The notes beneath the pieces are model-generated. The model was not told where the DNA came from. It did no database searches and saw only the letters and a list, made by a program, of their open reading frames with translations. A program made the position numbers and the translations under genes. DNA of 34,659 nt from a virus (lineage: Duplodnaviria; Caudoviricetes): positions 1-34,659 of IMG/VR virus record IMGVR_UViG_3300032330_000130; one strand, 5' to 3'. The stretch's first letter is position 1, and every line of letters starts with the position of its first letter. Shown here in pieces: positions 1,222 through 31,064 of this stretch.

Positions 1222-2265
1222 ATGCCAACACTAGCCGACATATACAGCGCCATCGACTCCGCTAAACGCAAGGGGTCTGATTTTGTTTGCAATCCCGGTG
1301 CAAGCCTCCAGCAAATGGCTGGTTACGGCATGGACAGGGCAAATGCCGCAAGGGATCAGCTATATGAGGCTACTGAGGCTGAAGGCATAGGTTACGGGCC
1401 AAAGACTAAGGCGCTGGCTCAAAAGATGGCTGAGTCATATAACCCTATAGGTATGACCACATGGCATGGATCGCCTCATGTATTTGAAAAGTTTGATCTA
1501 GGCAAGTTGGGAACTGGTGAAGGCGCACAGGCTTATGGGTCTGGGTTATATATGGCGCAAAACCCTAAAGTTGCTGAAGATTACGCTAAAACATTAGCCG
1601 CCAAATCAATGACAATAAATGGTCAGCCAATAGTTAAAGACATAAACAACTATTCTGTTCAAAAACTTGTTGGCGAATATGGAAACGACTTGCCAAAGTT
1701 AAAATCTGAATTAGACAAATATGCCAAAGATTATGCTGGCAACCCTTATGCTGACTTAATATCAGCACAAAATATAAGCAAAGCGATTGATGAAAAAAAG
1801 TTTAATGTAAATGCGGGCGGTAATCTTTACAAAGTTGACTTGCCTGACACACATATCCGCAGAATGCTTGATTGGGATGCACCTATAAAGGAACAACCCG
1901 TTGTTGTGCGTAAATTAGCCAAATCATTAGGGATTGACATGAATGACCTTGGCGGTGATTTGCTGGCTAAAGTAGGCAAAGACGAAGCTGGACGCAAAGT
2001 CATGCAAGACGCAGGGATTCGTGGCGTGAAGTATTTGGACGAGAAAAGCCGCTTTTCACCCCATGAAGTGTCCATAGCCGTAAAAGGCAAGCCATACGCT
2101 TCAAACCAATTTCTTACAAAAGAGCAAGCGGAAAAATATGCCGCTGAAAAGAAAGCCGAAGGGTTTGAAACTGCTTACAAAAACGTAGGTACTAAAAATT
2201 TTGTGGTGTTTGACCCAAATCACATGACAATCCTAGAACGCAACGCAAAACCCATCAATGACTGA
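1222..2265 (+). CDS. Stand-alone ADP-ribosyltransferase-like protein (ART-PolyVal / polyvalent-protein type domain)
   Basis: WHGSPHVFEKFDLGKLGTGEGAQAYGSGLYMA...GNLYKVDLP...LDWD...GIRGVKY...NFVVFDP motifs as in phage polyvalent proteins. Confidence 0.65.
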   Translation: MPTLADIYSAIDSAKRKGSDFVCNPGASLQQMAGYGMDRANAARDQLYEATEAEGIGYGPKTKALAQKMAESYNPIGMTTWHGSPHVFEKFDLGKLGTGEGAQAYGSGLYMAQNPKVAEDYAKTLAAKSMTINGQPIVKDINNYSVQKLVGEYGNDLPKLKSELDKYAKDYAGNPYADLISAQNISKAIDEKKFNVNAGGNLYKVDLPDTHIRRMLDWDAPIKEQPVVVRKLAKSLGIDMNDLGGDLLAKVGKDEAGRKVMQDAGIRGVKYLDEKSRFSPHEVSIAVKGKPYASNQFLTKEQAEKYAAEKKAEGFETAYKNVGTKNFVVFDPNHMTILERNAKPIND

Positions 2266-2671
2266 AACAACCGAAAAACGCCCTGTTGGTCGCCCATCCC
2301 TCTACAAATCAGAGTATTGTGAGGAAGTGATTGCATTGGGCAAAATCGGCAAAAGCGTGGAACAAATAGCCTCAAGATTAGGGTTTTCCCTACGCACAAT
2401 GTATCAATGGCGTGATGATCACGAAGAATTTTTGCACGCCTTGGAAGAAGCCAAGCAACATGAACTAGCTTGGTGGGAAGATCAAGCCGATTCTTACATG
2501 GTTGAGACTAAGGATGGGCCAAGGCTAAACGCAACATTGTGGTCTAGGTCTATGGCGGCAAGATTCCCCAAAAAGTACCGTGAGAGCGTAAAGCAAGAGA
2601 TTACAGGCGCTGATGGTGCGCCATTGCTAACGGGCATTCAAGTTAGCTTTGTAAAGCCTGATGACATCTAA
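2258..2671 (+). CDS. terS: Terminase small subunit
   Basis: GRPSLYKSEYCEEVI, HTH-like segment (SVEQIASRLGFSLRTMYQW), EITGADGAPL tail; upstream of terL. Confidence 0.85.
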   Translation: MTETTEKRPVGRPSLYKSEYCEEVIALGKIGKSVEQIASRLGFSLRTMYQWRDDHEEFLHALEEAKQHELAWWEDQADSYMVETKDGPRLNATLWSRSMAARFPKKYRESVKQEITGADGAPLLTGIQVSFVKPDDI

Positions 2672-2676
2672 GACGC

Positions 2677-2787
2677 ATGGGACAACCCATTCGTGTTGGA
2701 ATGTTAAGCCAGCGTTCAAGGATGTTGATGTGCGCCTTTTTCTGGCTTTCCAGCGCACCTAGCCAAAAACCGAATTGAGTTCCAACA
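2677..2787 (+). ncRNA. Candidate pseudoknotted structured RNA between terS and terL
   Basis: ATGGG/CCCAT hairpin; TGTTGGAA/TTCCAACA closing stem; GTGCGC/GCGCAC hairpin whose loop CTGGCTT is complementary to upstream AAGCCAG. Confidence 0.55.
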
Positions 2788-2791
2788 ACCT

Positions 2792-4075
2792 ATGTCTGAT
2801 GTAACCCAAGCAATTGCGAAGGCAGAATTCCCACTCAAGTTGGAATGCCTGTTTAAGCCATCACGTTACAAAGTCCTGTACGGTGGACGCGGTGGCGCTA
2901 AGTCATGGGGGGTTGCTAGGGCTTTGCTGATTAAAGGCGCACAAGCCCCGTTAAGAGTGCTTTGCGCCCGTGAATTCCAGACTTCCATCAAAGACTCAGT
3001 TCACAAGCTACTGTGTGACCAGATCGAGGCTTTAGGATTGCTTGGCTTTTACGAAATCACACAAACTAACATCAGGGGCAAAAATGGCTCAGAGTTCAGC
3101 TTTGTGGGTTTAAAGAACAATGTTGCCAACGTCAAGTCCTATGAGGGTGTTGATGTGTGTTGGGTTGAGGAAGCGCAGACAACCAGCCGTATGTCGTGGA
3201 ACGTCCTGATTCCAACGATTCGTAAGGAAAAGTCTGAAATCTGGATTACGTTCAATCCTGAGTTAGAGACTGATGAGACTTACCAGCGGTTTGTAGCTAA
3301 CCCGCCAGAGGATTGCATAGTCCAAAAGGTCAACTGGTCTGATAACCCGTGGTTTCCCGAAACGCTGAAACTTGAGAAGGATGCGCTTAAACACCGTGAT
3401 CCACAGGCTTATAACGTGGTTTGGGAGGGTTTATGCCGACAGACCGTAGATGGGGCTATCTTTGCCAGAGAAATGCAATTGGCTGAGTTAGATGGGCGCA
3501 TCACAAAAGTCAACTACGATGCCACAAAGCCCGTTCACGCCATCTTTGACCTTGGTTGGTCTGATGCCACAGCAATCTGGTTCTTACAGTTTGTTGGCAT
3601 GGAAACCCGCTTGATTCGCTATATTGAGGGCAATCAGCAGACCATGAGCGATTATCTAGCCAAGATGCAGACCTTTGGGTATATGTACGACACGCTTTGG
3701 CTTCCCCATGATGCTGAAAACAAAACGCTGGCGGCAAACGGCAGAAGCATTGAGGAAATCGTAAGGGCGGCTGGTTATAAAACCAAAATAATCCCTAGAA
3801 CGCCCATCATGGATTCAATCAATGCGGCTAGAACATTGTTTACAAATATGTGGTTTGACAGGGATAACTGTCACGAGGGCTTGCAATGCCTACGCCATTA
3901 CCGTTACGATGTTGACCCAGACACTAAGCAATTTAGCAAAACGCCTTTGCACGACAATTATTCGCATGGCGCTGATGCGTTTAGGTATATTGGTCTGATG
4001 GTTAATGAGCCTAGACAAGCCAGAAAGCCCAGACCCAATGCAAATTATGGTAGCCAACACTCATGGATGAGTTAA
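2792..4075 (+). CDS. terL: Terminase large subunit (PBSX/XtmB family)
   Basis: Walker A YGGRGGAKS, Walker B CWVEEAQ, TFNP motif, nuclease DLGWSD and HGADAFRY. Confidence 0.97.
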   Translation: MSDVTQAIAKAEFPLKLECLFKPSRYKVLYGGRGGAKSWGVARALLIKGAQAPLRVLCAREFQTSIKDSVHKLLCDQIEALGLLGFYEITQTNIRGKNGSEFSFVGLKNNVANVKSYEGVDVCWVEEAQTTSRMSWNVLIPTIRKEKSEIWITFNPELETDETYQRFVANPPEDCIVQKVNWSDNPWFPETLKLEKDALKHRDPQAYNVVWEGLCRQTVDGAIFAREMQLAELDGRITKVNYDATKPVHAIFDLGWSDATAIWFLQFVGMETRLIRYIEGNQQTMSDYLAKMQTFGYMYDTLWLPHDAENKTLAANGRSIEEIVRAAGYKTKIIPRTPIMDSINAARTLFTNMWFDRDNCHEGLQCLRHYRYDVDPDTKQFSKTPLHDNYSHGADAFRYIGLMVNEPRQARKPRPNANYGSQHSWMS

Positions 4076-30489: not shown

Positions 30490-30643
30490 GAATAAAGATA
30501 AGTTTATTGCACTAGCTGGCTCACAGAGTGATCTAGCCAAACTATTGGGGATAAAGCAACCAGCTATTTCCCAATGGAAGGCTGTGCCTATTGCAAGAAT
30601 TTGGCAATTAAAACTTTTAAAACCAGAATGGTTTGACAAATAA
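30488..30643 (+). CDS. cro: Cro-like HTH repressor, 51 aa (not in ORF track)
   Basis: MNKDKFIALAGSQSDLAKLLGIKQPAISQWKAVPIARIWQLKLLKPEWFDK*, N15/P22-Cro-like pattern. Confidence 0.9.
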   Translation: MNKDKFIALAGSQSDLAKLLGIKQPAISQWKAVPIARIWQLKLLKPEWFDK

Positions 30644-30659
30644 GAAAATTATGTATAAT
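30633..30659 (+). promoter_or_regulatory. Putative promoter for the structured RNA / replication operon
   Basis: TTGACA and TATAAT are both perfect but only 15 bp apart. Confidence 0.5.
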
Positions 30660-30665
30660 CCAAAC

Positions 30666-30819
30666 CGTCTGAGTGGCATCGGACGAGCGAAACCAATTGA
30701 GAACCCCATAGATTTCTGTGTGGTCTTGCCTGACAACAGGCGAACTTTTGATTGGTTTCAATCGTTTGTTGTTGCTCTCGCCAAGAGCCAAGACCACAGA
30801 GCAATTTATGGGGTTTTTT
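30666..30819 (+). ncRNA. C4/CI-like cloverleaf RNA with upstream complementary target elements (attenuator candidate)
   Basis: Long stem AACCCCATA...TGGTCTTG / CAAGACCA...TATGGGGTT enclosing three hairpins, then a T-tract; upstream GAAACCAAT and loop TGGC are complementary to ATTGGTTTC and loop GCCA. Confidence 0.65.
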
Positions 30820-30987
30820 GCATTTGGCGGCTGTGCAATGCGGTACGTCGGTGGTTGCATCTAGGGATACCCTGTTACACGAGCGAACTAAAGCAGGGGC
30901 GGTGGGCGAAGGATAGAGCCGAGTGGTTTGGACGCAAGTCTAAGAAGTCTGTCCTATGCGATGCGATGACATGGCTCCGAAGGGAAG

Positions 30988-30996
30988 TTATCCACA
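30988..30996 (+). promoter_or_regulatory. Consensus DnaA box
   Basis: TTATCCACA in non-coding DNA ~70 bp upstream of the replication gene. Confidence 0.45.
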
Positions 30997-31064
30997 AGCA
31001 AAGCGATTGCTGTTTCACTACGGTAAGGCTTTGCTTTGCTCAAACAATCACCAAAGGGAAGTAA

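Follow-up and report, generated by a model that had tools for sequence, protein, structure and literature searches.

The terS-terL region of the phage genome

The window (the whole stretch of DNA that was analysed, 34,659 nt) is a complete 34.7-kb phage genome with a terminal repeat of 91 nt, and it encodes a portal and a coat protein of the P22 type. The region between the two terminase genes contains the following features.

2258..2671, + strand: terS, the upstream gene; similar to the Sf6 terminase small subunit (26.5 bits, slightly below the 27-bit cut-off)
2661..2762, + strand: 33-codon ORF, beginning at the leftover old terL start codon that overlaps terS; not conserved
2670..2697, + strand: collapsed module A cassette repeat, seen as a small hairpin; its cargo is missing and 2695-2697 are common to P1
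2695..2786, + strand: the whole structured RNA, 92 nt, probably a compact subtype of the At1/Ti2 fold; 94 bits with the phage-only model R1, single copy in the window
2792..4075, + strand: terL, the downstream gene; Terminase_3, E 7e-41

The unusual size of the terS-terL gap, which had been pointed out in an earlier note on this DNA, was confirmed: it measures 120 nt, while the median gap between neighbouring genes is about 9 nt. Other wide gaps, of 209 and 253 nt, are found in the same gene run. The usual overlap of terS and terL is interrupted by the insert, and helix P1 of the RNA ends 5 nt before the terL ATG.

Two other parts of the window were recorded. Immediately 5' of terS, a 347-aa ORF (1222-2265) gave a weak match to ART-PolyVal (ADP-ribosyltransferase; 28.5 bits, under the cut-off), and at two other loci (L162 and L289) the 92-nt RNA is located directly 5' of a homologue of this ORF. 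Positions 30640-31064 comprise about 420 nt without a clear gene, 3' of a small repressor-like ORF, and include a 30-bp inverted repeat (30702-30731/30786-30815) with a U run at its end. An Rfam scan of 30640-31064 gave no meaningful match; we take this segment to resemble C4-type antisense RNA regions.

Fold of the gap RNA

That the terS-terL gap holds a real pseudoknotted RNA structure is virtually certain. Positions 2695-2786 consist of four helices and a 7-bp pseudoknot, made up as follows.

2695..2702, + strand: P1 5' strand, partner 2779-2786; free in sequence, with 5-10 bp in most family members, two-sided changes at 7 of 7 pairs
2703..2715, + strand: junction strand between P1 and P2, 13 nt, G-U-U-A-A-N5-C-R-N; the At1 family, found independently, also has the G-U-Y-A-A and the C
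2706..2712, + strand: pseudoknot 5' strand, partner 2742-2748; two fixed A and five free bases
2716..2719, + strand: P2 5' strand, partner 2775-2778; two-sided changes at 3 of 4 pairs, 3' side running directly into P1
2720..2723, + strand: internal loop GGAU, facing 2771-2774 (4x4 loop); conserved, but set by the search patterns, and variable in the At1 subtype
2724..2726, + strand: P3 5' strand, partner 2768-2770; 100% of cells paired, two-sided changes at 2 of 3 pairs
2730..2735, + strand: P4 5' strand, partner 2753-2758; two-sided changes at 6 of 6 pairs
2738..2750, + strand: P4 loop core UUUU-N5-UUUC, which contains the pseudoknot 3' strand 2742-2748
2759..2767, + strand: P4-P3 linker, variable, with a possible C-NN-G turn at 2759-2762; the At1 subtype and some phage copies have an extra hairpin here

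Several of these elements had been drawn in the earlier note. Both the GTGCGC/GCGCAC stem (2730-2735/2753-2758) and the 7-bp pairing of its loop with an upstream strand (2706-2712/2742-2748) were found where that note had placed them. The 8-bp closing stem proposed at 2694-2701/2780-2787 is also present, but the suggestion that it covers the ribosome-binding zone of terL did not hold, as no Shine-Dalgarno-like word lies inside it. The irregular-stem pairs TTC/GAA and GTTG/TAGC had to be replaced, covariation favouring instead TCAA/TTGA (2716-2719/2775-2778) and GTT/AAC (2724-2726/2768-2770), and of the proposed GG/CC stem one possible pair is left at most.

Since the junction strand is tied at both ends to the P1/P2 stack, the arm has to turn back, with the strand threading the closed P4 loop. 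The topology inferred from this would be ring-like, the junction strand winding for 7 bp through the P4 loop, where base triples are predicted for the U run. The invariant unpaired bases (G-U-Y-A-A, UUUU and UUUC) cluster at one end of the pseudoknot.

Homologous copies and covariation

An Rfam scan of the window returned nothing at the gathering threshold or at E<=10. Folded alone, the gap gave only a modest signal (z = -2.04; 4 of 200 shuffles equally good), and the minimum free energy structure of the window's own sequence differs from the conserved fold.

Copies were collected with sequence patterns. In viral sequences, the scan with the pseudoknot sequence fixed matched at least 119 stretches (about 360 estimated), and that with the pseudoknot left free at least 119 (about 780 estimated); the metagenome scan, in which neither pseudoknot strand was fixed, matched at least 120 (about 620 estimated). 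The 92-base fold occurs in hundreds of phage sequences. The window and 89 distinct copies, hand-picked from about 150 distinct ones, were aligned; the invariance of GUUAA, GGAUG and the 3' anchor in this alignment was partly built in by the search patterns.

The comparative signal was overwhelming. Across the 89-copy alignment, 98.1% of 2403 cells were paired, pseudoknot included, and two-sided changes were present at 23 of the 27 pairs. The covariation score was 0.72; shuffles scored 0.21, and slid partners no more than 0.13. When mutual information was calculated blindly over all column pairs, the top 20 places were taken by helix pairs, and RNAalifold unaided recovered the same P1-P4 helices. 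The G-U wobbles fall on the + strand, the direction of transcription. The metagenome set is the cleanest test of the pseudoknot because its pattern fixed neither strand: all five free positions pair in 108 of 114 distinct copies, and 24 of 29 distinct pseudoknot types pair, where 2.3 would be expected from shuffles.

Blastn against 50,697 GenBank phages produced two matches, both in the coding flanks. Among the matches listed for the genome scan, 112 of 120 failed the pseudoknot-pairing filter and were discarded as chance, leaving 8. In a low-sensitivity first look, 151 genomes from a single betaproteobacterial order were scanned with model R1, and only the seed genome matched. Small shares of four RNA runs, in the form of contigs that could not show RNA ends, were also inspected, and the element was covered in none of the four.

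Mobility and gene context

The 80 best TerL relatives from IMG/VR were taken from 600 candidates examined. In 71 of these, terS runs straight into terL with no insert; the remaining nine carry inserts, six with the 92-nt RNA and three with other modules only. The closest TerL proteins among the 80, at 99% identity, belong to phages with no insert. A quick tree was built from 72 distinct TerL rows, and placing the insert on it required seven changes, at least four of them forced by well-supported branches, compared to a mean of 7.7 for shuffled labels. The insert comes and goes among near-identical phages.

Gene context was equally varied. Clustering of the flanking proteins gave 37 groups upstream of the RNA and 34 downstream, some of which are spurious ORFs; they include ssDNA-binding proteins, polymerases, exonucleases, HNH proteins, methylases, TerS and TerL. 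Elsewhere, the RNA comes after dozens of unrelated genes, tRNAs or RNA-cassette arrays. Together with the scatter over the TerL tree, this bears out the suggestion that the element is a small mobile RNA module. No transposase or clean target duplication was seen, and insertion by target-site duplication was rejected, as the junctions differ among the nine inserts. Spread may instead occur by recombination via conserved gene ends and cassette repeats.

Positions relative to genes were counted for 153 distinct copies, 135 of which had a called upstream ORF. The RNA starts within 10 nt of the upstream stop codon in 68 of the 135, and within 30 nt in 90. A next start codon within 5 nt was present in only 10 of 126 copies, a Shine-Dalgarno-like word inside P1 in only 4 of 63, and a U-rich tail in 41 of 153; 22 of the 153 are cargo in RNA arrays. 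For the 99 copies with long flanks, orientation relative to the upstream gene was sense in 60, antisense in 13 and unclear in 26, and a convergent gene faces the RNA in 20.

Recurrent neighbours were also noted. A short hairpin motif, GCAGTTGCC, precedes many copies and is frequently located after the stop codon and ahead of P1 (just 5' of the copies at L083, L098, L129, L132, L143 and L170). Another module, with fixed ends GCGGAUGC ... AGCGAGUA (L051, L080, L105, L140, L150 and L180), occurs in the terS-terL gap as well as beside the 92-nt RNA. In the phage contigs L222, L238, L248, L252 and L276, the copies are located just 3' of an ORF of 23-24 codons, which we take to resemble the PQQ precursor peptide PqqA. 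One copy (L682) adjoins the 3' end of a tRNA, and others (L310, 286-384, - strand; L237) lie within a tRNA cluster on the strand opposite to the tRNAs. At L139 (272-389, - strand), a Betaproteobacteria-1 RNA (RF02932, 91 bits) was found about 170 nt 3' of a copy.

The adjoining cassette and the 33-codon ORF

The small hairpin that the earlier note had included in the element is indeed present at 2677-2690, but it is not part of the fold and belongs to the separate module A. A scan for the 3' half of module A matched at least 120 stretches (about 670 estimated). Its arrays, at 120 or more loci and with up to four units, contained 149 distinct inner sequences, and 46 distinct ones were located between units; a few of the between-unit sequences are not cargo. 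The module A stem covaries (99 GGGG/CCCC and 32 GAGG/CCUC among 169 units) and had no match in Rfam. Its ends enclose a 52-nt cargo in the inserts L019 and L021; in the window the inner cargo is absent, and the 92-nt RNA is one of the outer cargos. At L123, L127, L190 and L468-L587, the stem alternates with tRNA-like, kissing-loop and pseudoknot cargo. The array looks like a scaffold for swappable RNA cargo, possibly excised by a host nuclease.

The 33-codon ORF is present at 2661-2762 and overlaps the end of terS, as had been reported. Among the inserts, L005 has the same frame, L019 and L021 have another frame, and L020 and L071 have no ATG. The ORF had no Pfam match and was rejected as a gene.

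Relationship to At1 and Ti2

The gap RNA is very probably a compact relative of the fold of the Agrobacterium RNAs At1 and Ti2, as judged from sequence and pairing. The earlier note had called the element undescribed, which is correct insofar as the window has no Rfam match, but the fold is a distant form of Atu_At1 (RF02496). The phage copy L140 scored 27.8 bits against RF02496 (gathering cut-off 60), while the window gave no match at E<=10. The RF02496 consensus carries the same core as this copy, and the core, G-U-Y-A-A-N5-C ... UUUU-N5-UUUC in the P1/P2/P3/P4 frame with pairing between the two N5 segments, is present in the window. In the opposite direction, R1, built from phage copies only, matched 6 of 11 rhizobial loci with E values from 8e-4 to 0.15, only at At1-type RNA; it missed the other five, and its matches to At1 and Ti2 were weak (E 0.06-0.08).

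RF02496 itself was found in 11 of 151 genomes of one alphaproteobacterial order. Ti2 scored 80.5 bits on this model and is newly shown here, by sequence, to be a member of the family. In viral contigs, 16 of 18 loci hand-picked from 72 distinct pattern matches exceeded the RF02496 cut-off; these members occupy the same kinds of gaps, one of them 3' of a homologue of the window gene 754-918 and one adjoining a tRNA. The family therefore divides into two subtypes; the RNA in the window is of the compact type and falls below the RF02496 cut-off.

The pseudoknot was also evident in the bacterial copies, which were found without a pseudoknot constraint. Because the At1 rows of the mixed alignment were off by one MAFFT column (72% paired), the sequences were parsed directly: 14 of the 19 parsed copies pair at 5 of 5 positions, two of the five non-pairing copies are misparses, and several compensatory types are represented. 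In the Rfam structure of RF02496, a small hairpin is drawn where covariation places the pseudoknot strand.

Compared to At1, the window form is about 20 nt shorter and has no promoter of its own. It lacks both the At1 3' hairpin (GGCA/CG elements), for which it has a 9-nt linker, and a second small pseudoknot. The second pseudoknot, between the 3'-hairpin loop and the bases after it, was seen in At1-subtype copies at L439, L594, L622, L660, L661, L677 and others, with compensatory changes in several phage copies; it is missing from the Rfam structure. Given these absences and the score below the Rfam cut-off, the At1 and Ti2 data transfer to the window RNA by inference only.

At1 is located on pAtC58, 5' of ligD. 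It was measured at 113 nt by sequencing and 115 nt on Northern blots, with its highest level at high cell density (PMC3384568); a second account gives 118 nt by sequencing and about 140 nt on Northern blots (PMC3738593). Ti2 measured 113 nt by both methods, was the most abundant Ti-plasmid transcript, depended on VirA/G and was far in excess of its downstream mRNA; its deletion was reported, as data not shown, to have no effect on tumours (PMC3384568). In that study, At1 and Ti2 each ran as one full-length Northern band, and eight other sRNAs were processed; Ti2 has also been read as part of a 207-nt 5' UTR (PMC3738593). Neither RNA was listed as Hfq-enriched at its coordinates in table S6 of PMC4201532 (the At-plasmid rows spanning At1, and all Ti rows). 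A promoter of the RpoE2/EcfG type, GGAAC-N16/17-NNT(T/A), a pattern taken from the RpoE2 promoters printed in PMC6180224, was located 15-26 nt 5' of 17 of 22 bacterial copies, compared to 13 of 1190 background windows. Often, the gene that follows is encoded on the other strand. The termini of At1 coincide with the base of P1, and a U tract is absent. The bacterial relatives are stand-alone stress RNAs without a terminator-like U tract.

The sections on At1 and Ti2 in PMC3384568, PMC3738593 and PMC4201532 gave no function for the Atu_At1 family. No description of the phage form, of the pseudoknot or of the link between the phage RNA, At1 and Ti2 was found in the open-access literature, although the phage form may sit unnamed among the 8,495 candidate RNAs that Fremin et al. 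(2023) obtained from IMG/VR (PMC10690425).

Comparison with other structured RNAs

No ribozyme family was matched in the Rfam scans, and identity with hammerhead, twister, twister-sister, pistol, hatchet or HDV-like ribozymes was rejected. Pistol (RF02679) carries a UUAA stretch followed by a pseudoknot strand, as does the window RNA, but its topology is different, and in the window RNA neither UUAA nor the pseudoknot is followed by a fixed G. A cis-regulatory leader or riboswitch was likewise discarded: the RNA is not consistently 5' of functionally related genes and has no expression platform. The free variation of N5, with the lack of At1 and Ti2 in the Hfq-enriched rows of PMC4201532, spoke against an Hfq-dependent base-pairing sRNA.

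Exoribonuclease-resistant RNAs (xrRNAs) offer a further parallel. Class 3 xrRNAs such as ST9a, and flaviviral xrRNA/sfRNA, are similarly compact with a long pseudoknot to an apical loop, and leave a stable fragment after decay (PMC11702639). The class 3 loop, however, pairs with the 3' tail (PMC11702639), whereas covariation shows the partner in the window RNA to be the internal 5' junction strand, 5' of P4. There is also no common sequence, the known classes belong to eukaryotic RNA viruses rather than to a DNA phage and bacteria, and resistance of the phage RNA is putative. The coremin motif (xrRNA-C) has a UUAA-containing spacer after a stem, and a short spacer of this kind is the only likeness to it. 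Coremin requires a YGAD tetraloop and a CUAC spacer in a non-canonical pseudoknot (PMC10321173); both elements are absent from the window RNA, and coremin identity was rejected.

Possible functions

What the RNA does is far less sure than its structure and kinship. A sigma-70 scan found no promoter belonging to the phage element, so the 92-base RNA, probably transcribed together with the packaging operon, would be cut or trimmed out of late mRNA and would then remain when the messenger decays. The free pseudoknot sequence argues against an antisense role, and a stand-alone, uncut, non-antisense RNA with such a knot must work by shape; once released, it would act in trans. Any long stem halts 3' trimming, and stability alone therefore leaves the fixed core bases unexplained. 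The sfRNA of flaviviruses jams Xrn1, and by this analogy the target would be a host exoribonuclease. The reading that we tentatively place first is a free RNA that outlasts messenger decay and may serve as a shape-based decoy, stalling host RNA-degrading enzymes; instead of a nuclease, the RNA could have some other protein or a small molecule as its partner.

Behind it rank a stabiliser acting in cis and a partner other than a nuclease, both of which we consider rather unlikely. As a barrier to 3'-to-5' decay behind a gene, the RNA would let the upstream message (terS, ssDNA-binding proteins) outlast the downstream one (terL, DNA polymerase). The short distance from upstream stop codons, an orientation that tracks the upstream gene, and several cases of ssDNA-binding genes upstream with polymerase or exonuclease genes downstream are consistent with such a role. 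However, any insert in gene-dense phages comes after a stop codon, most of the best TerL relatives do without the RNA, array copies have no adjacent gene, and bacterial copies start from a promoter of their own and have no upstream message to protect. An aptamer-like sponge would use the fixed core to bind a small molecule or a non-nuclease stress protein, phages having borrowed it from the general stress response. Invariant unpaired bases grouped at one pseudoknot end, as here, are seen in the pockets of pseudoknot riboswitches, and the expression of the relatives is linked to stationary phase or VirG (PMC3384568). Against this, the downstream genes have no common theme, there is no expression platform, and no co-occurring ligand or partner gene was seen in the flanks examined.

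Two proposals of the earlier note fared worse. Small ribozymes are typically small and pseudoknotted, with fixed unpaired bases and a variable gene context, and the RNA has all four properties, which could suit a new self-cleaving class that cuts polycistronic phage transcripts. Yet no Rfam ribozyme family was matched, and the bases following UUAA are free to vary, whereas the catalytic G residues of the pistol consensus are fixed. The uncut At1 and Ti2 bands, alongside eight processed sRNAs in the same study (PMC3384568), lower this reading further, to an improbable one. The least probable reading of all is control of terL translation, in which a switch or attenuator would mask the start of terL and so fix the TerL:TerS ratio, flipping when ribosomes occupy the 33-codon ORF or when the cassette stem competes. 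The distance of 5 nt from P1 to the terL ATG, the three bases (2695-2697) common to the cassette stem and P1, and the broken terS-terL overlap would fit it. But the insert is missing from most relatives, the RNA is followed by many other genes or by convergent ones, a ribosome site within P1 and a start codon within 5 nt are both rare, and the ORF is not conserved among inserts. The RNA may affect terL locally as a by-product, but this would not be the function of the family.

The decoy reading can be extended to a first class of bacterial and phage exoribonuclease-resistant RNAs: a knotted general-stress RNA of alphaproteobacteria, carried by phages as swappable cargo in arrays with well over 100 other uncatalogued RNA modules, and jamming host decay in the manner of flaviviral sfRNA. 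We regard this full version as speculative and unlikely to hold in every part.

Implications

RF02496 was already catalogued as an RNA family, but without explanation; the pseudoknot, the membership of Ti2 and the large phage branch are new. They connect a widespread phage RNA with the stationary-phase sRNA At1 and with Ti2, which among the virulence-induced transcripts of the Ti plasmid is the most abundant and has lacked an assigned function since 2012. With the corrected, strongly covarying pseudoknot structure, Ti2 and At1 become testable by precise compensatory mutants in cultured bacteria. The adjoining cassette scaffold hints at a large uncatalogued pool of phage RNA cargo. Should the fold prove to withstand or trap exoribonucleases, bacteria would have an equivalent of the viral xrRNAs, and the fold would provide a 92-nt RNA-stabilising part.
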